Below are positions 2-51,400 of a stretch of 64,000 bases of DNA, piece by piece. The first letter of the stretch is position 1. Each line of letters begins with the position of its first letter. Origin of the DNA: Candidatus Danuiimicrobium aquiferis (lineage in GTDB: Bacteria > Omnitrophota > Omnitrophia > Omnitrophales > Danuiimicrobiaceae). Below the pieces are notes generated by a model. It was not told where the DNA came from. It ran no database searches and worked only from the letters and a program-made list of their open reading frames with translations. The stretch lies in NCBI GenBank assembly GCA_001804285.1, contig MHFR01000068.1, positions 103,230 through 167,229 of the forward strand. The letters are read 5' to 3'. The position numbers were made by a program, and so were the translations under genes.

Positions 2-949
2 CGGCTTCAAATCAGCAATGTCCGGTTTATCAAACGTGCGGATCCGCCCATGTCTCCGAGCGGGCCCGACCGTAAGAAGCTTCTTCTCATTGTCGTTTTA
101 GGATACTTATTTGCCAGCAGTTTGATCGTTATTTTGTTGGATCAATTTGATGATCGGATTAAAGGGCAGGAAGATATTGAAAGATATTTGCATCTTCCGT
201 ATTTGGGACATCTGCCACTTATCCGGAAACAGGATGTAAAGTCGAATCAGGAAAGAGCGCTTTATTCGCATCACAAACCGGATTCGGAAGTGGCCGAAGC
301 GATTCGATATATTCGTGTTGGAATTAATTTTTCTGCGCCGCCTGAAATATTAAGATGCTTACTTGTAACCAGTTCACTTCCGCAGGAAGGAAAATCGTTT
401 ACGGCCGCGAATCTTGCGGTATCCATGGCGCTTGATGGCAATAAAGTGCTTTTAATTGATGCAGATTCGAGGCGACCGGTTGGGCATCGGATTTTTCAAC
501 TTCGTAACGAGGTCGGTTTGATTAATTTCTTAACTTCAAATATTTCATTCGAATCTGTCATCCAACCGTCCGGGGTGAATGAGCATTTGTTTGTTATGCC
601 AAGTGGGCCCACCTCACCCAATCCTTCCGAGCTTTTTGCATCGGGCCGAATGAAGGAACTTGTTCAGTTGGCCCGGACTCAATATGACCGTGTTGTGATT
701 GATGCGCCGCCTTTAACCGGCATTGGTGACGGGTTTGTTTTGGGCGGGGTGGTGGGGCATTTGATTCTTATCGTGATGGCGGGAAAGACAAGCCGTTATG
801 CGGTTTCTGCGATTAAACATCGATTAGTTGATTCCAATATTAAAATTGTCGGTGTGATACTCAACAGTTTGGATGTCGAGCGAGAGCGCTACGGCTATTA
901 TCGTTACCATTATTACACTTACCAGCGTTATTACGGGAAGAAAAAATAA
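2..949 (+). CDS. Wzc-like polysaccharide co-polymerase / BY-family tyrosine kinase, C-terminal part; the 5' end lies outside the window.
   Basis: The frame is open back to base 2. A transmembrane segment (LLLIVVLGYLFASSLIVILL) is followed by a Walker A-like SLPQEGKSFTAANLA motif and a Walker B-like VLLIDADSRRP motif. The C-terminus is a Tyr-rich tail (YGYYRYHYYTYQRYYGKKK), typical of BY-kinase autophosphorylation clusters. Confidence 0.8.
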   Translation, partial: RLQISNVRFIKRADPPMSPSGPDRKKLLLIVVLGYLFASSLIVILLDQFDDRIKGQEDIERYLHLPYLGHLPLIRKQDVKSNQERALYSHHKPDSEVAEAIRYIRVGINFSAPPEILRCLLVTSSLPQEGKSFTAANLAVSMALDGNKVLLIDADSRRPVGHRIFQLRNEVGLINFLTSNISFESVIQPSGVNEHLFVMPSGPTSPNPSELFASGRMKELVQLARTQYDRVVIDAPPLTGIGDGFVLGGVVGHLILIVMAGKTSRYAVSAIKHRLVDSNIKIVGVILNSLDVERERYGYYRYHYYTYQRYYGKKK

Positions 950-961
950 GCCAGGCTCTGT

Positions 962-1197
962 AAAACAAAACGACTTCGCTTTCGTCAGCAAGTTTTGTTT
1001 TGCCGTAATCTAACCCGCCTTTCTCATCGATTTTGTGAATCGACGAGAAAGGCGCTTTGGGCGCAATCAGTTGCGCCCAAAGTTTTGCGCCCTTGTTAAA
1101 TCAGGGCGCAAAAGATAAGCCCTGCGTCGCAAAGATGCAAATCATCTTTGCGCCACAGCTCTTGCGTGCGGAATTTCTCATTAGCGATGAGAAATCC
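962..1197. repeat. Cluster of six consecutive stem-loops in the wzc-ligase intergenic region (962-1001, 1018-1052, 1055-1082, 1084-1112, 1130-1152, 1171-1197).
   Basis: The inverted repeats were read directly, for example ctttgggcgcaa/ttgcgcccaaag, ttttgcgccc/gggcgcaaaa, cctttctcatcgat/atcgacgagaaagg and gcaaagatg/catctttgc. Confidence 0.55.
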
Positions 1198-1219
1198 GGG
1201 CTAAACTTCTCAATCACAT

Positions 1220-3223
1220 ATGTTTATTGAACGCCTATTGATCCATTTTGCATTATTCGAAATTTCCATTTTGATCTTGGTCCTCCCCATTTCTTATGGC
1301 TGGAATCATCTTTTCCGGCTTTCAATCACAAGCTTTATTTTAACTTTGCCGGCTTTTTTGTTGTGTCTCCGGATGGCTTTAAAGGGCAGGTTCCTTTGGT
1401 ATCGGTCTGCTTCAAATGTCTGGTTTACCTTACTTCTCATCGTTGGATTTTTTCAGCTGTCCGGGGCATTTATATTTCCTACGGGAACCAAGTGGTTTCC
1501 GGCATCCTTATATGCTGAAGCTACGGTTGTCGAAACGATAAAATGGTTTTCATTCGGCTCTTTGATTTTCCTTTTTTCAACGTGTTTGCGAGAACGAAAA
1601 GATATTCAGCAGCTTATTCGAGTTTTATATTTTTCAGCCTATGTGGTCGCTCTTATTTTTTTGCTGCAATTTATCGCAGGGAAGTCATTTGTTCGCGGAT
1701 GGGTCATCCAATATCCTTGGCTTTCGTTTTTTGGGATTCATTCCAACCGGAATTATTTAGCTGCTTATTTCGGAATGATGATTCCGATGGTTGTGTCGGG
1801 GTTGATTTATCGTATTCTTCGGCATGAGGATCGTTTGCACGCGGGGAGTTTGCATTATTTAGGCGATTCTAAATTGTTGTTTCAATTTTCGCTGCTGATT
1901 TTTCTCACGGCCTCATTTTTTCTGACGGGTTCCAGAACGTCAGTTTTCAGTTTTGTGATTATGGTTTTGTGTTTCGGGTTGCTGTCTGTTTTGAAAAAAC
2001 AAAAGAAAAAAAATATCGCCATTGTTTTGATGATTGGGGCAGTTTTGTGCTTTATTTTACTGTTGTGGCTCGGAAAGACTTTTTTGATTCAAAGTCATCG
2101 GATTTTAGGAGATCTCGATGCCTACCGACATTTGCATGGACGATTTCCGATATGGAATAATGCATTTCAATTGTTTAAAGTGTTTCCGGCATTTGGTGTG
2201 GGACTTGGTGTTTTTTCTTCAGCATTTTCCAACTTGCATATCATTCGATCCAATGTATTAACTCAGCATGTGTTAAACGATTACTTGGAAATTTTGACAG
2301 AAACAGGACTGATCGGTTTTTTGTGTATTGTATTTGGTTGTTTCTTTATGGTTGTGAAAGGGATTTTTGCTTTTCGGAAAACAGAAAGCCGGTTTAAAGG
2401 AATAATGGGAGCGGGTTGCTTGTTCAGCTTGATGATGTGTGCGATTCATGGCATGACCGTGTCGAATTTTTATGATTTAAATAATTCCTTTTTCATTTTA
2501 TTGATCTTATGCCTCTTTATGAATTTGCCCACGCTATCAAGACGTCCGATCAATGATGATTATGAAGTGGCGCAAAATAATGTACGGCATATCGATATTC
2601 CTTCCCGCGCGATGCGGGGAATCCTTTTAATTTTTCTTGTTGTAGGGTTTTGTTTTTTTTCTTACCAGGTTTTTAAGATTGGGGTGAGCGATTATTTTGT
2701 GAGCCGCGATACGATGGATGACTTAAAAAAAGCATCGCGAATTAATCATCATGATGCCGAAATTCCAGCGCGTATCGCAGAGAAATATTTTATCAAATCG
2801 AATTTGGCAGGGGGAATGCCCGAAGAAAAAAGCCGGAATTGTGCACTTGCGAGATCTTATTTCGAAGAAGCGCGAAAATTGAATCCGTATAATAGTCACT
2901 ATTGGTTCCGTGTTCTGGAAATGGATCGAGAGCTTGGACAGTTTGAAGTCGGCCTTATGGAGTTCGAAAAATATTTTCAACTGGTTCCGTTTGATGTGAA
3001 AGCGTATGTTGATTATGCAACAATGTGTTTTGCATATTCGTCAGGTTTGAATATTAAAGAGAATGAAAACGTTTATTTCGATAAAGGTCTCTGGGCTGTT
3101 CGCAAGGCTCTGAAGCTCGATGTGTCCCGCTCAATTTTATTTTTTAAAGATGTTTCGAATACATGGCCATCTGAGATTATGTCCCGAGTTCAGGAATTGA
3201 CACGGCTTAAAATTATGAGATAA
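1220..3223 (+). CDS. O-antigen ligase/polymerase (Wzy/WaaL-like) polytopic membrane protein with a C-terminal soluble TPR-like domain.
   Basis: The 667 aa ORF has about 12 hydrophobic helices in the first ~430 aa. The tail is hydrophilic with TPR-like helices (RSYFEEARKLNPYNSHYWFRVLE...). It sits in a glycan-biosynthesis locus. Confidence 0.65.
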   Translation: MFIERLLIHFALFEISILILVLPISYGWNHLFRLSITSFILTLPAFLLCLRMALKGRFLWYRSASNVWFTLLLIVGFFQLSGAFIFPTGTKWFPASLYAEATVVETIKWFSFGSLIFLFSTCLRERKDIQQLIRVLYFSAYVVALIFLLQFIAGKSFVRGWVIQYPWLSFFGIHSNRNYLAAYFGMMIPMVVSGLIYRILRHEDRLHAGSLHYLGDSKLLFQFSLLIFLTASFFLTGSRTSVFSFVIMVLCFGLLSVLKKQKKKNIAIVLMIGAVLCFILLLWLGKTFLIQSHRILGDLDAYRHLHGRFPIWNNAFQLFKVFPAFGVGLGVFSSAFSNLHIIRSNVLTQHVLNDYLEILTETGLIGFLCIVFGCFFMVVKGIFAFRKTESRFKGIMGAGCLFSLMMCAIHGMTVSNFYDLNNSFFILLILCLFMNLPTLSRRPINDDYEVAQNNVRHIDIPSRAMRGILLIFLVVGFCFFSYQVFKIGVSDYFVSRDTMDDLKKASRINHHDAEIPARIAEKYFIKSNLAGGMPEEKSRNCALARSYFEEARKLNPYNSHYWFRVLEMDRELGQFEVGLMEFEKYFQLVPFDVKAYVDYATMCFAYSSGLNIKENENVYFDKGLWAVRKALKLDVSRSILFFKDVSNTWPSEIMSRVQELTRLKIMR

Positions 3224-3254
3224 TAAGATCAAGAAATTTTGTTAATTTTGTAAG

Positions 3255-4199
3255 TTGTTGTCAATAAACAAGTTAAGATATTTCGCTCCTATAAAGTTAC
3301 CTCCAGAATTATATTTCCGGGGTTGTATGACTTCAAAATGTAAAGAAAAATTTATTACTAATCCACCGGATCTTCTTTCCGGTGTAAGATATATTGTTGC
3401 AGTCGCAAGCGGGAAGGGCGGCGTTGGTAAATCCACCGTAGCGTCAAATCTTGCGCTTGGCGTGTCGAAATTCGGCTCGAAAGTGGCGATTCTTGACTGT
3501 GATATTTATGGGCCTAGTATTCCCTTAATGTTTGGCTTATTGAATAGCTCGGTGAAAATGAATGCAGAACAAAAAATGTTTCCGCTGGAATCACACGGTG
3601 TTAAATTGATGTCACTGGGATTTGTTTCTAATGATCAGACCCCGATCATTTGGCGCGGGCCGATGGTTCACCAAATTCTTATTCAATTTCTATCGTCTAT
3701 TGTGTGGGGCGATTTGGATTATTTATTTTTGGATTTACCTCCCGGAACAGGCGATGCGCAATTGACGATTACGCAGTCAATCCGGTTGAGCGGGGCCGTT
3801 ATTGTAACAACGCCTCAAGAAGTGAGCCTGATTGATGCGCGGAAGGCTTTAAAAATGTTTCAGAAGGTGAATGTGCCGGTTTTGGGTTTGATTGAAAATA
3901 TGAGTTATTTTATTTGTCCAGATTGCGCAAAGACTTCTGAGATTTTCAAACGCGGCGGCGGCCGTCGAATTAGCGAAGAACTTCAAGTGCCTTTTCTCGG
4001 AGAAATTCCGATTGATTCTGAGGTTGTGAAATCGGGGGATGAGGGAACCCCGATAGTTGCCAAGCAACCCGATTCGGTGGTTTCGAAAAGATATTCAGAA
4101 ATTGGGATTGCGATCGGAATACAACTTAAAGTCATGGAGCGTAATCGTCATCGCGACAAGAATGATTTGGTCCAGATTGAAATGAAGAAAAATAAATAA
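3255..4199 (+). CDS. apbC: Mrp/ApbC/NBP35-family Fe-S cluster carrier ATPase. The likely true start is the ATG at 3327 (MTSKC...).
   Basis: It has a deviant Walker A (VAVASGKGGVGKST) and the CPDC metal-binding motif (ICPDCAKTSEIF). Confidence 0.88.
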   Translation: MLSINKLRYFAPIKLPPELYFRGCMTSKCKEKFITNPPDLLSGVRYIVAVASGKGGVGKSTVASNLALGVSKFGSKVAILDCDIYGPSIPLMFGLLNSSVKMNAEQKMFPLESHGVKLMSLGFVSNDQTPIIWRGPMVHQILIQFLSSIVWGDLDYLFLDLPPGTGDAQLTITQSIRLSGAVIVTTPQEVSLIDARKALKMFQKVNVPVLGLIENMSYFICPDCAKTSEIFKRGGGRRISEELQVPFLGEIPIDSEVVKSGDEGTPIVAKQPDSVVSKRYSEIGIAIGIQLKVMERNRHRDKNDLVQIEMKKNK

Positions 4200-25675: not shown

Positions 25676-27439
25676 TTGAAAAAGGTCATTGTTGTTTCAG
25701 GGATCATTTTTTTCCTCTTGATTGCGGCCATTGCAGCGTTTGTTTTAACTTTTAATGTTGATCGGTATCGTCCTTTGCTTTGCACAAAACTGGAATCCGT
25801 TTTAGGAAATCCTGTTCAGCTTGATTCTGTCAAATTGGGATTCAGGGGAGGGATCGCGCTTGAGCTGAAGGGGTTGAGGCTCTATCCCGGTTCTACGCAG
25901 AAGAGTCGTCCTTATTTTCAATTAAAAGCTTTAAGCGCCCGACTCAAGTTAGAACCCCTTTTGCGAAGAGAAATAAAGGTAGGTTCCGTTCTGCTGGATG
26001 AGCCGGTTTTTTCATTAGTCCGTCAAGGGGATGGAGGCGTAGAACCCTTGGACGGATATAAAGGTTATTCTGGTAATATAAGCAATACAAGTCATCCAAA
26101 AAACAATTCCAACAAGCCATTGGCGGTTTCACAGGCAGCTTCGCTATCGTTGTTTGTTGATGAAATTAAAATCAGAAATGGCATCGTTAGTTTTATTGAT
26201 TATTCTTCAAAGACTCCCGCCCCAATTACGATGGATCGTATCGACATTGACTTGGCAGACGTTTCCCTCATGCAACCGATACAGGCGAAAGGCAAAGCGG
26301 CATTTTACAGCACTGAACAAAATGTAAATGCTGAAGTTGAGATAGTGCTTAAGCTGGCTGAAAAAATGGTTGTGTTGCGTAATCTGAATGTCAAAAGCGA
26401 TTTGAAGAGTTTGAGCCTGGAAACATTAGCGGAACGGTTTCTGCCGGTTGAGAAGATGAGTTTGCGCGATCCCGTTGAAGGGGTGCTGACGATTGCTGCG
26501 AAAGAGATTCAAATTCCTTTTTCGGAAAAAGCAGATTTTAATTTGTTAGGACACCTTGCGGACGGAAAAATTGTTTCTAACTTGATTCAGTCACCGTTTA
26601 AACACGTGACGGCGGATTTCACCATTGATCCGCAACAAATTCATCTATCGCGCTTTTCCGGGGATTTTTCGCGGGGCTTGGTTCATGGAGAAGGAAGATT
26701 TTTCTATTCGGCGAAAGAACCAAGCGTCGCGATCGATTTAGCTGCTGAAAATATTGATATGAGCACATTGCTGCCGCCGTTTCCGGAAAATGCACCTCAA
26801 CTAAAAGGCGGTTTGTCGGTTTCGGTTCGAGGGATTGCCTCCTTGGCGGAAAATGCTACGATGGGCCAAGCTTTCGATGGGCAAGGGGTGATTTCTCTTC
26901 GAGATGGTGTTTTGACGAATTTCAACTTACTAAAAGAAGTATTCAGTAAGCTTTCGATTATTCCGGGAGTCGTGGACACTTTGAAATCCCGGTTAACGCC
27001 CGAATATGAACAAAAATTATCGGCGCGGGACACGGTTTTTTTACCGGTCGAATGGCCGTTCACATTGAATCAAGGCACATTTTCCTTTAAAGATGTCCGT
27101 CTGGAAACAGATTCCCTTGAATTGATCGGTTCCGGATTCTTTTCAACGAATTTATACCTCCAATTAACGAGCATTTTATTTATCGATCCGGAGCTTTCGC
27201 TTGCGATGATTAAGAGTGTTAATGAATTACAGACTCTTACGGATACGACCGGGCGGCTTAAAATTCCGGTTAAAATACAAGGCCAGGTTCCCCGTGTGAA
27301 GGTCGTTCCGGATGTCTCGTCGGTTGCGACCGCGCTTGTGGTGACAAAAGCACAGGATTTAATTGGGAATTTCCTGAAAAAAACCTTGGAAAAAGAAGGA
27401 ATAATTCAGAAGCAGGCTCAGGGAACTGCGCAAAGCTGA
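25676..27439 (+). CDS. AsmA-family protein (outer-membrane assembly / lipid transport).
   Basis: An N-terminal signal anchor is followed by the AsmA-like N-terminal region (LTFNVDRYRPLLCTKLESVLGNPVQLDSVKLGFRGGIALELKGLRLY). Confidence 0.7.
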   Translation: MKKVIVVSGIIFFLLIAAIAAFVLTFNVDRYRPLLCTKLESVLGNPVQLDSVKLGFRGGIALELKGLRLYPGSTQKSRPYFQLKALSARLKLEPLLRREIKVGSVLLDEPVFSLVRQGDGGVEPLDGYKGYSGNISNTSHPKNNSNKPLAVSQAASLSLFVDEIKIRNGIVSFIDYSSKTPAPITMDRIDIDLADVSLMQPIQAKGKAAFYSTEQNVNAEVEIVLKLAEKMVVLRNLNVKSDLKSLSLETLAERFLPVEKMSLRDPVEGVLTIAAKEIQIPFSEKADFNLLGHLADGKIVSNLIQSPFKHVTADFTIDPQQIHLSRFSGDFSRGLVHGEGRFFYSAKEPSVAIDLAAENIDMSTLLPPFPENAPQLKGGLSVSVRGIASLAENATMGQAFDGQGVISLRDGVLTNFNLLKEVFSKLSIIPGVVDTLKSRLTPEYEQKLSARDTVFLPVEWPFTLNQGTFSFKDVRLETDSLELIGSGFFSTNLYLQLTSILFIDPELSLAMIKSVNELQTLTDTTGRLKIPVKIQGQVPRVKVVPDVSSVATALVVTKAQDLIGNFLKKTLEKEGIIQKQAQGTAQS

Positions 27440-27510: not shown

Positions 27511-27555
27511 CCCCTCACCCCGCCCTCTCCCTGAGGGAGAGGGCGGGGTGAGGGG
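27511..27555. terminator. Perfect 21-bp-stem, GC-rich palindrome after the asmA-like gene. No U-tract follows, so it may be a REP-like or factor-dependent terminator.
   Basis: The sequence reads cccctcaccccgccctctccc-tga-gggagagggcggggtgagggg. Confidence 0.55.
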
Positions 27556-27611: not shown

Positions 27612-28502
27612 ATGAAAAAAGAAAAATCCGGAAAAGTAAAACATAATATTGTAGCGCTGGTTTACGATTTCGACGGCACGCTTTCCCCGAACAATATGCA
27701 GGAAGACACGATTTTCAAAGCCTATAAAATCGATAAAAAGAAATTTTGGGAAAAAGCGCACAAATTAGTCGTCGAAAAAGGTTATGAACGAACGCTTGCT
27801 TATTTGAAACTGCTTATCTGGGATCCGGCTTTTCGGAAGAAGCCGATTCGGCAGGATGATTTGAGGAAACTTGCTTCGCAAATTGAATATTATCCGGGTG
27901 TTCAAGATTATTTCGACCGGATCGGAAATTTTGTCAAAAAGATTCCGGAAGTGCGCGAGTGGGATATTCAATTGGAACACTATATCGTATCCGGAGGAAT
28001 CAAAGACATATTGGATGGATGCGATATTATCAAACATTTCAAAAAAGTCTATGCCTGTGAGTATGAATATCAAAATGGAATCCCGGTTTTCCCTAAGCTC
28101 GTGATCAACGATACCAATAAAACGCAGTTTTTATTCCGGATCAATAAGGGGAAACTGAGTTTAAGTCAGAGTATCAATACCCATATGCCGGCGACGCAGC
28201 GGCGTATTCCATTCCGGAATATGATCTATATCGGAGATGGAATTACGGACGTTCCCTCGATGACGGTGACTCAAAAAAACGGCGGATCTGCTATTGCGGT
28301 GTTTGATCCGCGGAAGAAAGTTCCTTCAACGGTTCGGGATATGGTTCGGGAAAAACGTGCCGATCATTTCGCACCGGCCGATTTCCGCGAAGGAAGCCTT
28401 TTGATTAAAATTTTAAAACGGGCCATTCAGAAAGTCGTTCAACATATTTCTTATCAATCATCTGCGAATTTGTCCTACGACTGGGTGAGCCGGCACGGTT
28501 AG
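27612..28502 (+). CDS. HAD-superfamily hydrolase.
   Basis: Motif I (VYDFDGTL) and motif IV (IGDGITD) are present. Confidence 0.75.
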   Translation: MKKEKSGKVKHNIVALVYDFDGTLSPNNMQEDTIFKAYKIDKKKFWEKAHKLVVEKGYERTLAYLKLLIWDPAFRKKPIRQDDLRKLASQIEYYPGVQDYFDRIGNFVKKIPEVREWDIQLEHYIVSGGIKDILDGCDIIKHFKKVYACEYEYQNGIPVFPKLVINDTNKTQFLFRINKGKLSLSQSINTHMPATQRRIPFRNMIYIGDGITDVPSMTVTQKNGGSAIAVFDPRKKVPSTVRDMVREKRADHFAPADFREGSLLIKILKRAIQKVVQHISYQSSANLSYDWVSRHG

Positions 28503-28707
28503 CCCGGATTTCCCGTCGATTCACAAAATCGTTGAGAAAGTCGGGTTAAATGAAATCGTTGTGTTAATATAAAATATTTCTTTCGGTATAATGATATTTC
28601 CATTTTCTTATCGTTTACTGTAAGATAAAGCATAGAATTGATCAAACTTAAATCAAGGGGACGATTGATCAAAAATCATCTCCATTTATAATGACAGGGA
28701 AATAAAC

Positions 28708-36418: not shown

Positions 36419-39400
36419 ATGGCAGGTTCGACGAAACAGTTTATCTTAAGAATTATTGCGGGCGTTACATTATTGGCATTTTCAGTCAACCAAATTGGTT
36501 ATTCCAACCCAAGCCCGACTAATTTTTCAGCCCAACCGGTTACAGAGGTTCCGCTTCCGAATCCGGGATTCCAATTTTCGATTCCTCCAGAATTGGGGAC
36601 CGTTCAAAACCTGACATCCGGGTCGGGCGGCACGATCGTTCACATTCAAACCGCGCACGGAAATTACGAAGCCGAGAAACAAATTCAAGCGATTCTTCAG
36701 CATCTTCATGATCATTACGGATTTAATCTTTTACTTCTTGAAGGCGCCGGTGTCAAACTGAAACCGGAATTACTTCAATTTTTTCCTCAGAACAAAATCA
36801 AGACGTTTGAGCTTGCCGACAAGTTAACACACAAATCGCTCATGAAGGGTGCTGAACTATTTCTCATGCGGGCAAAGCGCGCGAAAGCATTCGGAATCGA
36901 AGACCTTAAAATATACCGGAGGAACCGGCGCGCCTTTTCGAGAGTCATGATGCGGAAAAAAGAAGCCGACGGGTTTTTGGAACAAATTGACCGGGGGATT
37001 AAACATTTTTCAGCTTTGTATTTGAATAAAGAACTGAGGACATTTTTAAATGAGTCGGAAGATTATGAAATGGGCAAGACGCCGCTTTTAGCATGGATCC
37101 GGTCGCTACAAAAAAATGCGGAGATTTTTTTAGATCTGGATTTATCCGATCCGAAAAATCAATTTCATTGGCCGATGACGCTTCGCCTGTTGAAATTGCA
37201 GGAGCTTGAGTCAAAGATTGATACGGAAAAGCTGGCGGAGGAGAAACGGAATTTTTTAAAGAAAATAAAACCTTTATTTGTGTCATTCCCGCAAAAGCGG
37301 GAATCCAGAATGATGGATCCCCACTTTCGTGGGGATGACAAGCAGTCTCGGATTGCATCGCCAATGTCCGGGACGACGGCTCGCAATGACGGCCGTCAGA
37401 ATAGGGGACAGGCAGTTCATCTGCCTGTCCCCTATTCTGGCCTGTACACCCAAATCGAATCCTTGCTCACGTCTCCCGCAAATATCCAGAATGAATTACC
37501 GGATCCCGAAACCGGACTTCTGTTCGAGAGGATGGCATCAAAACTTCCGAGGAATTTTAATTATCGCATGTACCCAAACCTGAATTATTTCATCGGCCGG
37601 TTAATTCTCCAAAGTGAAATTAAGGGGGAACTGTTACTTGCGGAAACCAATCATCTCGAAGAGTTGATTGTGAACCGCTTAGCGCAAAAAGAAGACGAAA
37701 AACAGCTTATGGAATTGCTCCGCGATTTTCATCTTTTAAAACGGTTATTCGCTTTAGCGCTTACGCCGGAAGATTACGAACAAATGACGAGCGATATCGT
37801 CCGTCATCCTGAGCCCCCAAAGGGCGAAGGATATGAGGAAAAGAGATTCTTCGCACTTCGCGCTCAAAATGACAGATTTCGTCCGAGAAACATGCTGCAA
37901 TCTTTTAACGCTTTAAACAAGGATAATCATGTTCAGAATTTACAAGTTGCTGGAATAAAAGATATCGATCTGCTCTATGAATCGGCTCTCGAATTTTATC
38001 GAATAGCGAAAAACCGTGATTGGGAAATGCTCGAAAATATTCAGAAGCGGATGAATCGGCTCGGTGAACGAAAAGCGATTGTCATTACTGGCGGTTTTCA
38101 TGCAACACCCTTCAAGAATTTCTTTTCTGAACACGGATATAGCTATGCGCAGGTTCGCCCCAAAATTTCCTCAACGGACGGATTCCAATCCTACATCGAC
38201 GCCATGCTTCAAAAATCCACGCTCGAGTCCCCGTATGTTTTCAGTATTCCGCCGGCAGAATGGATAAGGCACGGAATCAATCCAAGTTGGGTGAGACAAC
38301 AATTTTCTGCTGCGATGCGGGGGATGGCGGAGCGAAATCGGTCTGAAACGCGAAACAAAACAGGTTTACAAAAAGGGGACAGGCAATTGCTCAACAGGAG
38401 TCATATGCCTGTCCCCTTTTTGACTGACCAAAGCGCGCAAGAGTCCTCGATACGTTCCAAGGAGCATGTATCGAGGGCCGAAGCGCGCGGAAGAGAAGTC
38501 ACCAGTCGCCAGTCACTGGTCAATAGTGTTCCAGTGTCTAGTGATTTAGTATTTCAGGTAAGGGCTGAAGATTCCCGCCAGGGGCATGCGGGAATGACAG
38601 TAGAGCTCCATCGCAATGACGGTGCGTCAAGGGCCGAAGTCCGTCAGACGAAACAGGCGGAAATTGATACCCCGGCGTTTTATGCGGAATTGCCTAAAGC
38701 GCAATTAAGAAAAGTGGCATTTGCAATTCAGTTTTTGTTTGAAGATTCGTTTGCATGGCTTCCTCACGAAAAAACAGACATCAGCATCCCCAATATTGAG
38801 TCCGAACTGAAACGTTTACCGAATTACAAACTTAGGAACGAAGAAGAACTCGAGCGGATGCTTCCCAAACTGCGCCTCACAAACAGGGCAGCGCTTGTAC
38901 AATTTCTGGCGGTGTTAGTTGCATTGTTTGACAAAAAGGATGAAGAACGTGAGGCGGCGGAAAAGGCTGTGACGGAAACGGCTGAGGTGAAAAGCATAGA
39001 TGCTTCTACAGATGTTTCTCCTGAAGCGAAAAAATCGAAGTTATTCCATTTCGCTTTGCGTTTTATGGGGTTGGAAGAGCTTGTGCGATTTCGGACGATG
39101 AGGCGGACGAGCGGAGCGAGTAAGGAAGAGGAGAGGGCAGAAGATAAAAAAACGGATGCTTCGGTTGAAGCAGGTGAAGGAAAAGAACCGGATCAACCCG
39201 TTGACCGGCGGCCAACGAACGAAAAAGACGCTGCATTTTATACTCGAGATCTATATTTAACAGGCGGGCTGTCCCATCAAAACGCCTTGTCTAAAATTCT
39301 TGCATATCTTAAGGCCGGAATCGGTGATGTTGAAAGTGATTTGTTAAGGCAGCCGGTGTCGGATGTCCTTAAAACCTATGAGGATGATTTTCATCAGCGG

Positions 39401-42400: not shown

Positions 42401-45400
42401 ACCGCAGAAGATATGCAAGCCTTCGTCCATTTCTTTTTCGAACGATTTTATCGATTTCAGAAGTATAAGGGTATGGAAAATATTGTTGATCCGGAAAACG
42501 GCATCCTGCTGGTCAAGACTATAGACGAGTTGAAATTGCATAAACAGGATATTTTGACAGCGATACAAAATAAGAATCGCGCAGTATATGGCAATATGCT
42601 TTTTTGGGAAGGACTATTCCGAACATTTGCTGTAAACGGTCCTGGTTTTTATGATGCGTTTACACCTGACGAATGGAAAACCGTTCTCAATCATGTTTTT
42701 GATGTGTTGGAGGGGAAAGTGCATTATCGGCATTTTCGCCAGCGTTATTTTGAAGAGAGGAAAGCACTCAATGTTATTGATTATTTTCTGTGGGGTAATT
42801 TATCGAGCTTGCACCGATTGCATCTTTATTTTGAGGGTGTTGGGACGGTGAAAGGCGATTTTCAGAAAGTATCCATTCTCTATCTAATGATGGCTGATAG
42901 TCCGTGGGGGTATGTTTTCCCAAGTGCGGATCATTTTACCGTATTAGATCCCGATCGTTCGGGTCTATATCTATCATTTTTTGAAGATCCGTCGATTGCG
43001 GTGGGGATTCCGGAAAATCCTTGGGCAAAATCCAATTCTAAGGGGGGGCTTCCTACTGCAAAAGCACCGCGTGTTGCCGTAAACGTTTCACCGGAAATTC
43101 GGAGTTTAATGGTTGAAACGATTGAGCGCCTTGTCAAAACAAAAACAGGGGATCAAGATGTTCAGTCTTTTATTTATTCCAGAAACCTTTGGTTTAATGG
43201 ACACAATACTGCCGATTTTTTGAAATCAGATCTGTTAAAGCAGGCTGCTCCGGTGAGGCCGAAACCGCTCAGCACAAAACCTTACACAACAACCAAGCCG
43301 GCAGAACGATCCGGAAACGTTCAGAGCCAGGGGCGGGCTGAAGTGCGCAATGTCACGCCAAAAACGGGGACAGGTTCTGTATCAGTGAAACCAGAACCTG
43401 TCCCCGTTCTGGCGAGGGCTGAAACTCGCGACGAAGCGTTGGGAGGGCGAGTGAGCGTGAAGGAAGAAGATGTCTTTAAAGGATCGAAACTTCTTAAATG
43501 GCTTGGTGCCGCGTTTTGGGGGTTGGGTTGTGCGGCGTTTCTTTATGGCGCATACGGCGTTATTTCGCTTTCGGATCTTTTTGTTTCCTACTTGCCGGTG
43601 CTTCTTGAGGGCTGGCTTATTATTGGAACTGCCGTGCTTGTCAGCCATTACAAAAATCAGTTGCAATATTGGACGCGGCTTTCATTGATGACCGGTGCAA
43701 CCGTGTCCGTTTTCTTGCTCTTTCACAAACTCGCCGCTTACTACTGGCCGGTGTTTGGTTTGAATCCCGACATAAAGCTGTCAACAAGCATGATCGTCCG
43801 CTTGCCATCTATCTTTTGCGGAGTTTTTATCAACGAGTTGATTCGGGTAAAAAGATTTTTTAATTTCGAATTCAAATTAGGCTGGGAAGAAGCGAAGCCC
43901 CATTTTATCAAGGCATTTAAATGGGCGATTTCTTACGGAGCGATTACGGGATATTATTTTTATGTTGTTTTGTACGGCTTTATCGGACCGTATATTCCAC
44001 AGGCGAATTATTTTCCGATGATGACACCTGATATGGGGACGGCGATGATGAAAATGTTTTTTGACCTCGCGGTGACGACGCCCCTTGTCAATATTTGGAC
44101 CGTAAGTGCGGTTAGTGTGGCCTTCGGAGAAGAGGTGGATGTTGCCCAAAATTGGAGAAACCAGCTGGAGGGTTTTCTGTTATTTTATCCTTTAACATCT
44201 CTTTATTGGATGGTCGCGCTTTCTATATCATGGTTTCTCTTCCCGGATGGCCTGGATGGTTTTCAGGCCTCTCATGCGCTTTTTTCCACTCTTTGGCAGA
44301 TAGCATTGCCGGTATTTATTGTTAAGTTTTATATCGGAAACGGAAAACGCGGCAAGTTGACCGGTCAAAAGCCTGCTCCGGTTCCTCATCTCATATGGGA
44401 AAACCAATCGGTTTCCGCAATATCCCGCAGAGTGGACGTGCGTCCCAAGAACGCAAACACAGGAATTACGGTAAACCGCAGCCATCTTCGTGCTTTGGCA
44501 ATCAATATGGTATTTGCCGGAGGAGCTGTGGCGGATAAAGCGGCTCAATGGGCGCTGAGTAAAACATTGCCTGTAGCGGCGAAATTGCTTTGGCCCGGAA
44601 AACCGCGGCGATCAAAGACGTCAGACCGTTCCGAAGTTCGCAACAATGAAAATAATGCCAAAACGATTGTTGATCGAGGCGAACAAGAGTCCTCGATACG
44701 TAGAGGGCTTGTATCGAGGGCCGAAGCGCGGCAGGAGGAATATGAAGTCGCGAGTCAACCGGCGGCTCCACATATCAGGAATTTGAAGCAAGTAGTCACT
44801 GATGTTCAAACAGCGGTTTCCGAACTCAATATTCGCGGCCTGGAGGTTTTTGTTTTCGGTTCGCGGGCAAATGGGAAACCAAGGGATGGTAGCGACTTGG
44901 ATTTGATCGTTTTAGTTTCCGAGACCATGGATCAGGCTGCTGCCATGGCGATTATTTGGCAAAATGATGAAATTGAAAAACGACTTTCAGAAAAGCTTAA
45001 AACAAAAAGAGATTACCGTGTGCAATTTCACGATATTAATCCGGCAACCCGGCGGCACTATTTTTATTTGTGGAAGACTCGACAGTTTTTTAAAAAAAAT
45101 ACCTATCTTTGGTTTGTTCAGGCAAATTCAATTCAAGGGTTTGAATTGCATGCAGATGGAGTTGTTCCGGTGGATCTTGATCGACTGGAAAGTTTAACGC
45201 CGCTGCCGATCAATCTTGCGAACGATATAGCAGGCTTATCTCCTGAACAATCTCGGAGTGAAACGCGGCAAATGGGATTCGCAGAAGAGGACGAGGAAGA
45301 CTCTGACGATGACTTCATGCTCGATGGTGAAGACCTGGATATAATGCCTGGCGAATTTTCAGTGAAGCCCCAACCGCCTTCCGGGGCTGCCAATCAATTG

Positions 45401-48400
45401 AGTGGCGGCAAAGAAGAAAAAAATAAGGGAAAAAGATTTCCAGCGGCGCGTCCTGATGATTATCCCTCTCCGGTTCGATCCATCATTTCCAGTGGACTTA
45501 AAATTGACGAGGACACCTCGCTTCCTTCTGCCCGACGGTCCGAAGTTCGCCTCAAAAAAGATAGTACAGAAGCGATGCTTCATCAAGGCGCACGAGTGTC
45601 CTCGATACATCCCAAGGGGCCTGTATCGAGATCCGAAGCGCGCAACATTTTACAAAAAGGGGACAGGCATATGACTCCTATTGAACAATTGCCTGTCCCC
45701 TTTTTGACTGACCAAAGCGAACGAGAGTCCTCGCAGTTGCGGCGAGGGCCAAAGGATGCCGCTGCGAGGGCCGAAGTTCGGTCGGATTTCAACAACGCGA
45801 CAGATGAACAAATCATGACTGCGCTAAAACAAATCGGGTTATCCGAGCGGCAAACCCGGAACCTTTCCACTTATCTTTCGAAAATCAAACGCGTTTTGGC
45901 ATCGGGCCGGCGGTTTCGATCGCATGAAGAACTCCGCGTATTCATGGCGGGTGTTTTGGGGGTGCCTGAATTGGCGGCGAAATTCGCAGATCATTTCTTT
46001 GAAAAGTCTGCTTCTCAGCCTGCGGCAAAGCCCAACAAAGCTCCTTCAAAATCATTTCAATTTAATAGAACAGTTGAACAGGTGATCGGCAAGATGCCTT
46101 TTAGCGTGAATGTTTTGTCAGGTCCGAACAGGAAAAAACTTTATGACGGAAAATACGTTCCCAATGTTGTTCAGGTTGCCAGCCTTGGCGTGAGAGAAAG
46201 AATAGCAGCAAGGCACATCGTCTATTCTAAATTTCTTGATGTGTTGGAAGAGTATACACACCTGACAGAAGCAGAATTGCTTCATATGGGTTTTGTCTAC
46301 AGGCAGGGACCTTCATCTTTATATCTTTCAGAAGTGGTTCGTCCTATTCTCCAATCAACCGGAGCAAGTCATGAAGCGCAATCGGCTTTGGCTCCGGCTA
46401 TTCTGGAAATTGCCAAAAGCATGCGCGAAGCCAAAGCGCTCAGCGGGGATGAAGTGCTTAAAGCCATTTTTTCTAATTTGGGTGGGATCGATGGACAATT
46501 CAGCCAGCTCATCGCCTATTTGAACCACATTCAATTTAACAAAGGGAAAAATCCGCGGCTGAAAGTGCCGGATGAGAAAGTACAAGAAATAAAATCCATT
46601 GGTGAAGTGGAAGAGATAACGATTTGGTTTGTTAAAGCCGGGTTCCTTACGAGTGTCGCAATGGCAGAAGTTAAATTCAAAAGTAGTACAAATCGAGCGC
46701 CCATTCGTTTTGCGATTAATGTCGCTAACGATAGAACGATTTCCGCGGAGAAAGTGAGGAATGCATATCGTCATATGCGAGCTGATTATGATTTAGATTC
46801 CCGGTTTGTTGCTGAACCGATTGGGTTGGGAACCGAGATTGCGCCGGTGATCATCAGTGAGTGGGTCGAACAGAGTGACGAACTTCATTTGTATGCGGAT
46901 ACCGGATTTCAGCAATTCCAGGTTTGGAGCGGCCAAAATATGCACAACAACCAAAAAGTTTCGCTTCAGGACTCCCGGAAAATTTGGCGACAAATTATTC
47001 AGATACAAACGATGTATTCCGGGGTGAGGCCTGACGGTGCCGGGATGTCACGGCCATGGATCAATCGCGGGGATTTTGTGCTGACGCGTGATTCGCAAGG
47101 GGAACCGCGTGTTGTATTAATTTGGGATGACAGAAGTAATCTTGTTACGGGACAGAAGATTCCGTGGGACGCTATTGATAGCGTTGTCAACAGTTTGATT
47201 TGGGGGGAAGTTGACCCGGACAGCGGAAAATATATTTGGGCAGATGATCCGGAATTAGCGATTCGAGCGATTGAAGACGGGTATTTAGAGCATAGGCAAG
47301 ATAAGATGGAGGCGAAAGCTGAACTGATCGAAATTCTTAAGATGGTCTATAGAAATAGACTTCCTGAAATTATTAGGCAGCCTTCTGTCATTTCGGCGGG
47401 TTTTGATGATTTTGATCCTGCTGAACTGGATCATTTTATTTCTGTCGCTAAGCATGCACACAAAGTGCTGGGCGAATTTTTGCAGCAACGTTCTGAAGTT
47501 CGGGAAGAATCTTTTGCGGTTGACGGTGAAAAAGACCTCACCATTGAAGAAATCGATGCGCAAATGAAGACGGACGGCTTTCCGGAAATGGAATGGTTAT
47601 GGAAGACATTCAAAGGGATGAAAATATGGAAGGGCGTAAAACTCCGGCGTATCAACTTAGCCGATATTGATCCCGGAAAAATTCAAGAGATGCGCACCAG
47701 GCATATGGGCGGTTTATTGGCGCGTCCTTTGGTCATGGCTTTGATGTCGGTTTCCATTATGTGTATTGCACTGTCCGTTTTTATGCTTTCCGTTTCTGCT
47801 CTGCAAGATGTCATGCTTTCGCTGCAGGGCTATCCTGTGGGTGATTGGCATAGTTTCTGGAAGAATAATGTCGAACCGATTTTTCGGATGTTTCGCAATC
47901 CGCTGATATGGATGGCGCTTTTATTTTCAACGCCGGTGGTTTTTTTGCCGGCAACGGCAATCAAGCGGGCGTTTCTGCTGTCCTGGAAGAAAATTTCCGC
48001 ATTGGACCTTGCGTTTATGTTAAGCAAACGGAATTACCGGGAATGGTTCGAGCAGACGCCGGGGGCGCAACAAACGGTCGCCAAACTTCGCGGCATGGGA
48101 ATCAATGAAAACTTTGATAATCCTGATTATGCTCGCCGCTATCGCGCCACGACCAAAGGTGTTGTGGAAGTGCCGATTCCTGCTGTCCCCAACGTTCATG
48201 CCGTTCTGAAGGAGGTACTCGGGGAAGTGCGTGATGGAAAATACGAGCGGGGCAACTACACGACCAGTCTAAAACACGGAAGGAAATCCGTGACGGCTTT
48301 TGTCGCGCAGAATAAAAGGGAGGTTGAGCTCAGCAAGCCGCCGAGGCCCAGGTATGCGTGGCCTATCCCTACGTTCATCGGCTTGCTCATGGGTTTTTAT

Positions 48401-51400
48401 TCGATCGTTTATTTCCCGAGGACGCCTATGTGGGGTCTTTATTTGGTCGTGATGTCCATTATAGCGCCCGGAATATATTTTGTAAGTACTGCGCTTAACA
48501 TTGCTCCCGGAATTTTATATTACAAAAGAACGCGAACCTACTTGTCTCAAATCATTGCGGGAAACCGCCCCAAGTCTGGAATTGAAATTAACATGGAACA
48601 ATTGGGGATTAATGTTCTGGAATATGAAAAAGAAAAAGTGTATGAAAATCGCGAAGCAGGGACGCGAATTGTTATCAGAAATAAGAAGACATTGGAAGGA
48701 GCCGTTAAATTTTTAACTTCGAGTGAGGATATCGGCAACTGTATTGCGCTTCATAATTTTGTGTCATGGGTCCTTCCGACTTTACTTGATGATGATGGCA
48801 TTCAACTGGCCGACATCTATTTCAAAGGGACGCACGATGTTTATACTCATCGGGCCCAAATGTGGATGGTCGCGGCGCAGGAAAATGGGGTTCCCGTATT
48901 AACGGTGAATAGTTTTGAATTCAATAATGACGGTTCCACACACATTAACCGCTTAATGCCGGAAGCGATTAAGGCGTTACAAGATGTTGCGGTAAGGACA
49001 GGGTTCAAGAAGCACATTTATGTGGGAATTTCAGAATTTGGGCGCGAATATCTGGATAGTCATTTTCCCCAGGGCAAAACACAGAATGACATTGAAAAGA
49101 TTCATCATCCTGACGCCGGCTACAGATACTATTTCGATTCCTATGCGTTGAGGGGATTTCCTTGGGGCCATAGGCGATATGTGTTTTTGAAAGAGAGAAG
49201 TCTGACTAAACGAATTTACGCGGTTATCTTTGGCATCATTGAGGTGTTTAAAGGAAATTTTTCAAAGGCCAAAGCATTTATTAGCAGCGCAAAAAACGTT
49301 CATAATTTCTGGGAAATTCCGGTGGAGAATGCTGGCCAAGCCATTAAAGAAACTGAAGAGGCTCGTTCTGAAGTGAGAACGCAAAGGCTGCTGGATGATA
49401 TTGGCCAGAATTCCGGAGATATTGTTCAGCGTTTGCATGACAGCCAGATCAGATATTTGGAGAAACAGGGTGTTGAAAAAAATTTTCTTGAAAGAGTCTC
49501 AAGGCTGCCGGTCGATGAATTGTTTTCCGAAGCAATTAATTATTTATTGGCGAGGGAAATCAAAAAAACAGGGGTCCGGCTCCTTCCTCAAGCCGAAGAA
49601 ATAGTTGATTTCATTTTACGGCAGAATCTTCCCGTGTTGATGATGACAGGGACACCGCATGACTATGTGAATTTGAGAATTGCCCATCATCCTCTTGCTA
49701 AGCGGATAGCCGAAAGTGCGGGGATTTGGGGCGCTCATGAAGACGAAATTCGTATGGGTTATCCCGGTAATAAACTTGGCGGCATACGGGCCTTATCCAG
49801 GGATCCGAAATACGGGGCGGGAAGAATTCTGAGTATCGGTGACGGCGAAGCGGAGAAACAGGCGGCAAGCAAGACAGGGAATCCGTTCGTTTTGATTGAT
49901 CCTTTGGTGCAGGAAAATATGACCGCGGTGCTTCCCGAAAAACCCATGATCGTTCACGATCTCGCCCGGTGGCGCGAATGGCTTCCAAATTTATTGGAAA
50001 AGCAGAATATTAAAATTGTGGTTTTTGATTGGGATGGAACATTGTCTGACAGTCAGTCGGCCGTTGAAGAAGTTCAGACAAGGCTTCTTTACGGGATATG
50101 GAAAGGTTTCAATGATGAAGCTTTAGAAGAACCCGAAATCATAGCAGAACTTTATGAAACATCTTTTGGGAGAGAAGCTCTGCGGATGATGCAAAGTATC
50201 CGCGGACTTTCAGCGCAACGAAGTTTCAGCGAATATTTTATGCCGTTGCTGATCAAACCCGCCCGTGCCGAGGTTCGGGAAAATGAAAATGAGTTACCTG
50301 AGGTGCCTGAACCGCCATTAGAGTTGGAATTAACGGGGAGTGCTTCGGTTTCCGATGAGACAGTGATTCTTCCTCCTGATGTGACTTCTTCACAAGGTGA
50401 ACAGCCGGAAGATGTAAAATCGGCGGAAGATCAGGTCCGGTTTGAAGACGAGGTTATCGAACCGGATGGCCAGATAGATACTGAAAAGTTAAATATTCAC
50501 ACTGCGATCTACGAACCAACCGGGAGTGGCTTACTTGATGAAGTTGATGAACAACGGGAATCAGTGGCGCCCGGAAATAATGATACGGTGGTGTTGGCAA
50601 GCCCTGTTTTGGATTTGTCGGGCGATTTGCCTGCGACATCGTTGAATATTGAAAATTTTATTAAAGCAGATCTTAAGCTGGGGATGCTTTCCGACAATTT
50701 AAAACAGTATGAAATTAGACATCATCAATCGGATTGGCTGATTGAACATGAGATTCGTGTGGCGGTGCTTGTGTTTCAACTCGGCAAACAATTGAAATGG
50801 GATCCGGACGAGTTAAGAGAACTTGTTTTTGCCGCGAGATTTCATGACATCGGAAAAACCGATTCGTCTATCAATCCGCTTATTGTTAATAAACCGGAAG
50901 CATTGACGCCATCTGAGAGAGACTTGATGCGTCGGCATCCGCTTTATGGCGCCAGGATTCTGGAAGAAGCCGGTGTCGATTCCAAACAGATTTTAGATGC
51001 GATGTATATGCATCACGAGGCGCTCGACGGAACGGGTTATCCGAGCCAGCTTAAAGGAGATTTGATTGATCGGGGCGGAAGAATTCTAAAAATCGCAGAT
51101 TCATTTGACGCAATGGCATTTGCCCGCCCTTATTCACAGCCGAAATCGCTCGAAACCATTTTGAAGGAATTAGAATCCGACCGCGGTTCACATTTCGATC
51201 CGGATTTGGTTAGGGAATTTGTGAAATTGGAAACTTTCCCCGCAGGTGGACGTGCCGAAGTACGTGACATGACGCCCAAAACTGGGACAGGCAATCGTTT
51301 CCTTTTCATTGGATTGTCAGACCAAAAAGGGGACAGGCATATGACTCCTGTTGAGCAATTGCCTGTCCCCTTTTTGACTGCCAAAGAGCTTGTATCAAGG

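Follow-up and report, generated by a model that had tools for sequence, protein, structure and literature searches.

A hairpin cluster between a Wzc-like kinase gene and a Wzy_C gene in Candidatus Danuiimicrobium aquiferis is very probably a miniature inverted-repeat transposable element with IS1380-type ends

Bacterial miniature inverted-repeat transposable elements (MITEs), such as Correia of Neisseria, ERIC/IRU of enterobacteria and RUP of Streptococcus pneumoniae, are non-coding elements of 100-300 bp with terminal inverted repeats. They occur as tens of dispersed intergenic copies with strong predicted structure, and internal insertion or deletion gives rise to length variants. Correia elements duplicate TA. 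Elements of the IS1380 family in ISfinder make duplications of 4-5 bp. The eukaryotic element piggyBac has the target TTAA, and its ends begin with CCC and finish with GGG. REP/BIME elements and the REPINs moved by RAYTs are interspersed extragenic hairpin palindromes; REPs are units of 20-40 nt with a GTAG-like head and a link to a Y1 transposase. IS1380 serves as the prokaryotic outgroup of the piggyBac transposases (PMC10813416), and IS1380-family elements are able to influence neighbouring genes via outward promoters and to mobilise adjacent DNA (PMC9330008).

The window, by which we mean the whole 64,000-nt stretch of DNA analysed, carries near its start the 3' part of a gene for a Wzc-like tyrosine kinase, followed on the same strand by a gene for an O-antigen ligase/polymerase-like protein with a long C-terminal extension, hereafter the ligase gene (Table 1). 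The full kinase gene encodes 590 aa (L001:3958-5730), and its homologues are named polysaccharide biosynthesis tyrosine autokinase. The intergenic spacer between the two genes (950-1219) measures 270 bp. A sequence-only reading had reported six consecutive stem-loops in this spacer, which we call H1 to H6. All six are present, and the ends assigned here differ by at most 2 nt from those first proposed. The same reading regarded the structure as atypically dense, and this is borne out by folding. The RNA fold of 945-1225 has an energy of -116.5 kcal/mol on the plus strand, compared with -71.5 +/- 5.1 kcal/mol for shuffled sequences (z -8.75), and of -128.3 kcal/mol on the minus strand (z -10.5); on neither strand did any of 200 shuffles reach so stable a fold. 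The 64-kb window contains about 17 distinct hairpins with perfect stems of at least 9 bp, and six of them lie inside the 236-bp block. The GCGCCC / TTGCGCC motif said to be shared among the hairpins is also real, since GGGCGCAA or its complement occurs four times within 1059-1111 and once in the remainder of the window. Because 945-1225 folds on both strands, the signal is one of DNA palindromes, and folding alone does not indicate an RNA.

Table 1. Positions of the genes, hairpins and element parts discussed in the text (window coordinates).
Feature	Position	Strand	Description or basis
Wzc-like P-loop tyrosine-kinase gene, 3' part	50-949	+	ORF; Pfam AAA_31/CbiA/ParA
H1	962-1001	+	10-bp stem, 20-nt loop; weak A-tract/T-tract hairpin, outside the mobile element
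CTAA, left copy of presumed 4-bp target-site duplication	1010-1013	+	Flank comparison across copies
Putative MITE, holding H2-H6	1014-1200, 187 bp (1011-1204, 194 bp, when counted TAA...TAA)	+	nhmmer profile
Left terminal inverted repeat CCCGCCTTTCTCATCGATT	1014-1032	+	Inverted repeat I1; also the 5' arm of H2
H2	1016-1054	+	17 bp, one A-C mismatch; left inverted repeat folded onto its inner inverted copy
H3	1055-1082	+	12 bp; GGGCGCAA/TTGCGCCC palindrome, perfect here, with a C-A mismatch in most other copies
H4	1083-1113	+	11 bp, perfect; TTTTGCGCCC/GGGCGCAAAA palindrome; most conserved stem, 99% of cells paired
H5	1117-1163 (core 1128-1152)	+	Core of 10 bp; imperfect 21-bp inverted repeat; most variable part
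H6	1171-1197	+	9-11 bp; right terminal inverted repeat folded onto an inner inverted copy
Right terminal inverted repeat, minus-strand reading CCCGGATTTCTCATCGCTA	1182-1200	-	Match to IS1380-family left end
CTAA, right copy of presumed target-site duplication	1201-1204	+	Flank comparison across copies
Wzy_C (O-antigen ligase/polymerase-like) gene, long C-terminal extension	1220-3223	+	PF04932, 70.9 bits
Second, short copy, 50 bp	28499-28548	-	H2 joined directly to the block's final 14 nt; the two inverted repeats flank a loop of 5 nt

Our data indicate that H2-H6 is very probably a single copy of a non-autonomous transposable element, a MITE, inserted at CTAA in a formerly short spacer. A search of the JGI metagenomes with the 18-nt core of H2 as query returned 48 loci, and in about 27 of these the core is embedded in a whole H2-H3-H4-H5-H6 unit between unrelated flanks. 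The borders of the unit are sharp, with a left edge at TAACCCG and a right edge at CCGGGCTAA. Fifteen distinct full-length copies align over 194 columns with a mean identity of 96%, and the order of the modules is fixed. The genes flanking two other copies, for LigA in L028 and a ferredoxin-type protein in L037, bear the same MAG names as the ligase gene of the window, so the copies belong to one organism. At least 20 insertion sites with unrelated flanks were found in Candidatus Danuiimicrobium aquiferis (Omnitrophota), a dispersal of the kind expected of a MITE, and all copies sit between ORFs. In the window the profile matches 1011-1204 with an E value of 8e-70, and the element, oriented like both genes, is separated by 61 nt from the stop codon of the kinase gene upstream and by 15 nt from the start codon of the ligase gene downstream.

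H1 does not belong to this unit. All other copies of the repeat begin at TAACCCG, equivalent to position 1011 of the window, and H1 is therefore part of the flank. Its fold, taken alone, is matched by 23 of 200 shuffles (z -1.29) and so does not exceed chance. The stem pairs an A-tract with a T-tract and has a weak inner helix (-13 kcal/mol), and the terminator scan did not flag it. H1 is possibly the native terminator of the kinase gene, and we list it as a candidate for that role.

The profile search also found long forms of 290 bp, in which a 96-bp segment is inserted in H5, and short forms of 47-97 bp, which are essentially both ends of the element around a 5-nt loop. Long forms were seen at L045:3338-3627 and L046:14414-14703, and their 96-bp insert has no counterpart in shorter copies. 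A tandem pair is present in L060, where a 194-bp copy (2715-2908) and a 290-bp copy (3006-3295) are separated by 97 bp. As judged from the sequences, the short forms would be explained by deletion between the direct repeats CGAYGAGAAA, which lie in the 3' arms of H2 and H6. The window itself holds a second, short copy (Table 1), which came to light when the spacer was compared with the remaining window sequence by short-word blastn (92.5% identity over 40 nt, E 2e-10).

The features of a MITE are also found within the unit. It is small (187-194 bp) and non-coding; Pfam gives no match to the one ORF inside it (1057-1230, 57 aa, TTG start), which extends into the unique flank. Its ends are inverted repeats, with CCCGCCTTTCTCATCG at 1014-1029 corresponding to the complement of 1185-1200, CCCGGATTTCTCATCG. 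These terminal repeats are about 19 bp long, imperfect and of the CCCGGATTTCTCATCG type, and every copy preserves the ends; over the 29 nt of the longer inverted repeat I1, complementarity is 76%. The outer arms of H2 and H6 are mutually inverted, CCCG(A/C)CTTTCTCATCG against the complement CCCGGATTTCTCATCG, and agree at 11 of 13 positions in addition to TA[A/G]CCCG. Each terminal repeat would pair with an adjacent inner inverted copy of itself to form H2 or H6, and the core would consist of three palindromic modules, H3-H5, with shared GCGCCC/TTGCGCC words. The density of hairpins that drew attention to the spacer is thus a by-product of the architecture of the element.

The flanks of the copies were also compared. 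Among 18 full or long copies, 14, that of the window being one, are bordered left and right by CTAA, and unequal flanks were seen in five full-length copies, four with TTAA/CTAA and one with CTAA/CTGA. The short copy at 28499-28548 has TTAA on the left and CTAA on the right. Since the flank hardly varies from CTAA in D. aquiferis, a duplication is inseparable from a fixed part of the element when this genome alone is considered. The terminal TTAG of the short copy, read on the plus strand, supplies the TAG stop codon of ORF 27612-28502, and the copies at L014, L028/L047, L030 and L046 are similar in that their terminal TAA or TAG overlaps the upstream gene's stop codon. Such overlap of element ends with stop codons is to be expected if YTAR targets include stop codons.

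Two copies, L028:7448-7640 and L047:808-1000, have a common left flank, the 3' end of ligA, and two different right flanks joined through the MITE. This represents either recombination between copies or a chimeric assembly at the repeat. The LigA protein variants P0244 and P0245, which were compared for insertion polymorphism, are identical. At the kinase-ligase spacer an empty site was not found within the species, as all nine assemblies carry the insertion, and the spacer is identical across them save for one SNP.

A family of insertion sequences that uses the same kind of end was found outside the host phylum. A degenerate 19-mer of the ends, TARCCCGRMTTTCTCATCG, was scanned against one genome per GTDB species. 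At least 102 stretches match it, mostly in MAGs of Acidobacteriota (Bryobacterales), and many of these form inverted pairs 160-195 bp apart. Among the matches listed there are 66 distinct bounded elements, 57 of MITE size (100-250 bp) and nine of 1,747 bp. The 4-nt flanks are identical in 54 of the 66 elements listed (CTAG in 23, TTAG in 12, CTAA in 11 and TTAA in 6), which shows that a target of 4 bp, YTAR, is duplicated. The 1,747-bp element, exemplified by L086:500-2246 in a Bryobacterales MAG, encodes a 471-aa protein that is an IS1380-family transposase (NCBIfam NF033539, 393 bits against a cut-off of 180; Pfam PF13701, E 5.5e-153), and at least nine copies with an identical transposase are present in one MAG. 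Its inverted repeats are CTAG|CCCGGATTTCTCATCGCGG and, on the complement, CTAG|CCCGCATTTCTCATCGATT. The right end of the window element matches the left repeat of the insertion sequence, CTAG|CCCGGATTTCTCATCGCGG (L086:500-515), at 16 of 16 nt, and the left end matches the right repeat CCCGCATTTCTCATCGATT at 17 of 19 positions. By this comparison the window element has its ends in common with an autonomous insertion sequence. The link consists of the 16-19-nt ends alone, as the interiors of the Omnitrophota MITE and of the Bryobacterales insertion sequence and Acidobacteriota MITEs are unrelated.

Some further observations were made on the Acidobacteriota elements. In several of these MAGs (L063-L164, e.g. 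L065:431-605) there is an abundant family of GC-rich MITEs, about 175-189 bp long, that have the same ends and occur alongside the copies of the 1,747-bp element. The 1,747-bp element of L086 apparently interrupts an ORF. Two longer end pairs, in L126 (1.19 kb) and L119 (2.9 kb), were considered as autonomous elements and rejected, as they enclose ordinary genes and represent neighbouring MITEs. A TA or TAA duplication and an IS5-type origin were considered for the window element and were dropped after the IS1380-family element with its 4-bp YTAR duplication was found.

The window element encodes no transposase and is not itself an autonomous member of the IS1380 family; having only the ends in common with that family, it is a derivative or a hitch-hiker. 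No IS1380-family transposase was detected by tblastn in the window and loci L001-L062 (about 0.4 Mb of the same organism), and of at least 8000 homologues of the Bryobacterales transposase, the best 120 are all at least 70% identical and none of these 120 is labelled Omnitrophota. We infer that the family is mobilised in this host by an IS1380-type transposase. An IS1380-family DDE transposase acting in trans would bind the ends, excise or copy the element and integrate it at YTAR, where 4 bp would be duplicated. The occurrence of these ends on insertion sequences of another phylum, the Acidobacteriota, implies that one transposase-end system may have spread across phyla.

The hairpins at the two ends could also be read as the signature of a different enzyme. 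In a REP/BIME-type or IS200/IS605-derived element, a Y1 (HUH) transposase would move single-stranded DNA, cut beside YTAA and read H2 and H6. Subterminal hairpins do occur at each end, solo palindromic short forms exist and there is a mild orientation trend. The C or T before the left TAA varies and the right CTAA is fixed, which resembles the arrangement of a left target site and a right cleavage site. However, the outer arms of H2 and H6 are genuinely inverted with respect to each other, at the 11 of 13 positions and TA[A/G]CCCG noted above, and their sequence is that of the inverted repeats in an IS1380-family element of DDE type, which produces duplications of 4 bp. The GTAG-type REP head is absent from the sequence, and what is repeated is the whole unit of 187-194 bp with a fixed module order and DDE-type ends, not a unit of 20-40 nt. 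We therefore consider movement by a Y1 transposase very improbable. An array of REP-like elements had been one of the three options offered by the sequence-only reading, and it came closest of the three. The part that stood is that this is interspersed repetitive DNA; the block is a single 187-bp MITE and not a REP array.

The other two options were a structured RNA or leader with a regulatory role and an array of protein-binding sites in control of the ligase/polymerase gene; both were examined by comparing the locus with its relatives. Twenty-three contigs of metagenomes and MAGs from the Rifle aquifer (GCA_001805325.1 and others) encode the ligase protein in identical form; they come from Omnitrophica bacterium RIFCSPLOWO2_12_FULL_44_17 and Candidatus Danuiimicrobium aquiferis, both Omnitrophota. 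Homologues of this protein gave three matches only, and it had no match in the GTDB genomes; because they are so few, relatives were reached via the kinase gene. L012 is the nearest relative that keeps the gene pair, with a kinase 66% identical and a ligase 34% identical (E 6e-51), and its kinase-ligase spacer is 20 bp long and lacks the element. In L011 a toxin-antitoxin pair lies downstream of the kinase gene. The short spacer of L012 and the different neighbour in L011 show that the hairpin block is lineage-specific. A fragment 96% identical, P0030, covers only the 5' part of the kinase gene, and the spacer lies outside it. In L062 (ENA scaffold_6997), a 3.4-kb contig, positions 1873-2916 encode a product of 347 aa, with 96% identity to the Wzc-like kinase in the part that matches. 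It carries a precomputed CorA Pfam label (PF01544), and the next called gene starts 4 nt later; either a sequencing error or a kinase gene that is frameshifted or otherwise split in a related strain could account for it.

These comparisons bear directly on the proposal that a leader, riboswitch, attenuator or transcription-factor array specific to this locus controls the Wzy_C gene. The hairpin region does lie directly upstream of that gene, and overlapping alternative pairings exist among the GGGCGCAA repeats (I6, I10, I11). Nevertheless, the identical unit stands beside unrelated genes at 20 or more other sites, and the orthologous spacer in L012 is without it, so that the intergenic region is not conserved in relatives, an outcome which the sequence-only reading had itself named as speaking against regulation. 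A covariance search with Rfam gave no match at gathering thresholds anywhere in the window; the best score in the region was 16.3 bits against a threshold of 125 bits, and nothing rose above noise even at E = 10. Both options lack support on these grounds, and we give control of the ligase gene by a device of this kind almost no credence. The element of H2-H6 is an ordinary selfish insertion and not a regulator built for the downstream gene.

An inserted MITE could still have been put to use after its arrival. Its hairpins might serve as a 5'-UTR or intercistronic RNA module, with a possible role in processing, stability, partial termination or the gating of translation, and the copy next to the ligase gene would then tune that gene relative to the kinase gene. 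We consider such co-option unlikely on the present data. The arrangement of copies provides some support. The downstream gene is on the strand of the element in 14 of 19 cases, and a bias of 14 against 5 is not predicted by pure selfish insertion; however, the trend is non-significant (binomial p = 0.06) and is based on naive ORF calls. A start codon often follows the right end at a distance of 1-40 nt (15, 37, 23, 1, 19, 31 and 28 nt). IS1380-family elements are known to affect neighbouring genes via outward promoters (PMC9330008), but no sigma-70-like promoter was found in the three copies scanned. Terminator-like matches in the three copies scanned amounted to a 6-bp hairpin only, at chance frequency.

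The structure of the copies was considered in the same light. Some 88% of stem cells are paired, and H2 contains one compensatory change from A-T to C-G, at pair 8-42, which is A-T in 12 copies and C-G in 3, including the window copy. The identity of 96% among copies means, however, that this conservation of stems is explained by recent amplification. Across the 15 copies two pairs change on both sides, and the percentage paired is 87.7% compared with 87.3% in column shuffles; covariation is uninformative on selection for structure because the copies are too similar. The minus strand folds better than the plus strand by about 10 kcal/mol in 14 of 15 copies, so the strand that is usually transcribed folds worse than its complement. 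Mismatches in the stems of the plus strand are mainly A-C (71 cells) and not G-U (16 cells), and an A-C mismatch on the plus strand is a G-U pair on the minus strand. Both the better fold of the minus strand and the A-C mismatches argue against selection for an RNA structure on the plus strand. The window copy folds best of the 15, at -99.3 kcal/mol on the plus strand and -107.9 kcal/mol on the minus strand. Five stable hairpins 15 nt before the ligase start would probably perturb read-through, processing or translation of a joint transcript. There is a small chance that the family as a whole has been retained as a transcribed multi-hairpin module, sense-oriented upstream of starts or placed on stops, that sets the relative expression of its neighbours. 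If the orientation trend is true in a closed genome, the family becomes a candidate for a co-opted module acting at the RNA level.

The interpretation of H2-H6 as a MITE removes a false lead, since the structure upstream of the polysaccharide ligase/polymerase gene is the footprint of a transposon and not a riboswitch-like regulator. It also adds a previously undescribed MITE family in an uncultivated Omnitrophota species, tied by its ends to the IS1380 family, which is itself related to piggyBac. A full-text search of the literature gave no paper combining Omnitrophica with 'miniature inverted-repeat', and no IS1380-derived MITE family appeared in those titles and abstracts examined of papers that mention both IS1380 and MITE. 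The repeats are likely points of breakage or chimerism in metagenome assemblies of D. aquiferis, as in L028 and L047.

Other repeats and palindromes were observed elsewhere in the window. A perfect 21-bp GC-rich hairpin, CCCCTCACCCCGCCCTCTCCC tga GGGAGAGGGCGGGGTGAGGGG, lies at 27511-27555 between ORFs 25676-27439 and 27612-28502, and it may be a terminator or another repeat. One uninterrupted frame on the plus strand covers 36410-64000 and runs past the end of the window, making a giant gene of at least 9,197 codons. This ORF holds perfect palindromes with 17-19-bp stems, CAAAAAGGGGACAGGCA ...20 nt... TGCCTGTCCCCTTTTTG, at 38369-38422, 45653-45706 and 51323-51376, and further palindromes at 37397-37439 and 43363-43408. 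The three main palindromes have a common codon phase, and their 20-nt loop is present in both orientations, copy 1 being the exact reverse complement of copy 3. The frame is open through the loop either way, as QKGDRQLLNRSHMPVPFL or QKGDRHMTPVEQLPVPFL. These palindromes could be an in-frame insertion of a palindromic repeat or a small invertible segment. A second repeat in the giant ORF, of about 63-108 nt with a CCTCGATAC...GTATCGAGG hairpin, occurs at 38425-38487, 44627-44700, 45535-45642 and 61105-61212 with 74-86% identity, and is probably a repeated coding module.

Compared with the known systems, the family resembles the bacterial MITEs in size, in its non-coding nature and terminal inverted repeats, in its tens of dispersed intergenic copies, in its strong predicted structure and in its length variants. 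It differs from them in that its sequence is unrelated, its ends are of IS1380 type, its presumed target is the 4-bp YTAR and its host is an uncultivated member of the Omnitrophota; in addition, each terminal repeat of the window element folds onto an inner copy of itself. Like REP/BIME elements and REPINs it is made of interspersed extragenic palindromes, and D. aquiferis has short solo palindromic forms, but the unit of 187-194 bp carries DDE-type inverted repeats where REPs have a GTAG-like head and a Y1 transposase link. With the IS1380 family (ISEcp1, IS1380, ISPme1 and L086:500-2246) it shares the terminal 16-19 nt CCCGGATTTCTCATCG..., the CC start and, presumably, the 4-bp duplication at YTAR; unlike these elements it has no transposase gene, its interior is dissimilar, and no autonomous partner is present in the roughly 0.4 Mb searched. 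The window element is also bacterial and without a transposase where piggyBac is a eukaryotic element, and its presumed target is YTAR rather than strictly TTAA. Even so, both have a 4-bp target that contains TA, and the arrangement YTAR|CCC...GGG|YTAR at the ends of the window family is comparable to that of piggyBac at TTAA.
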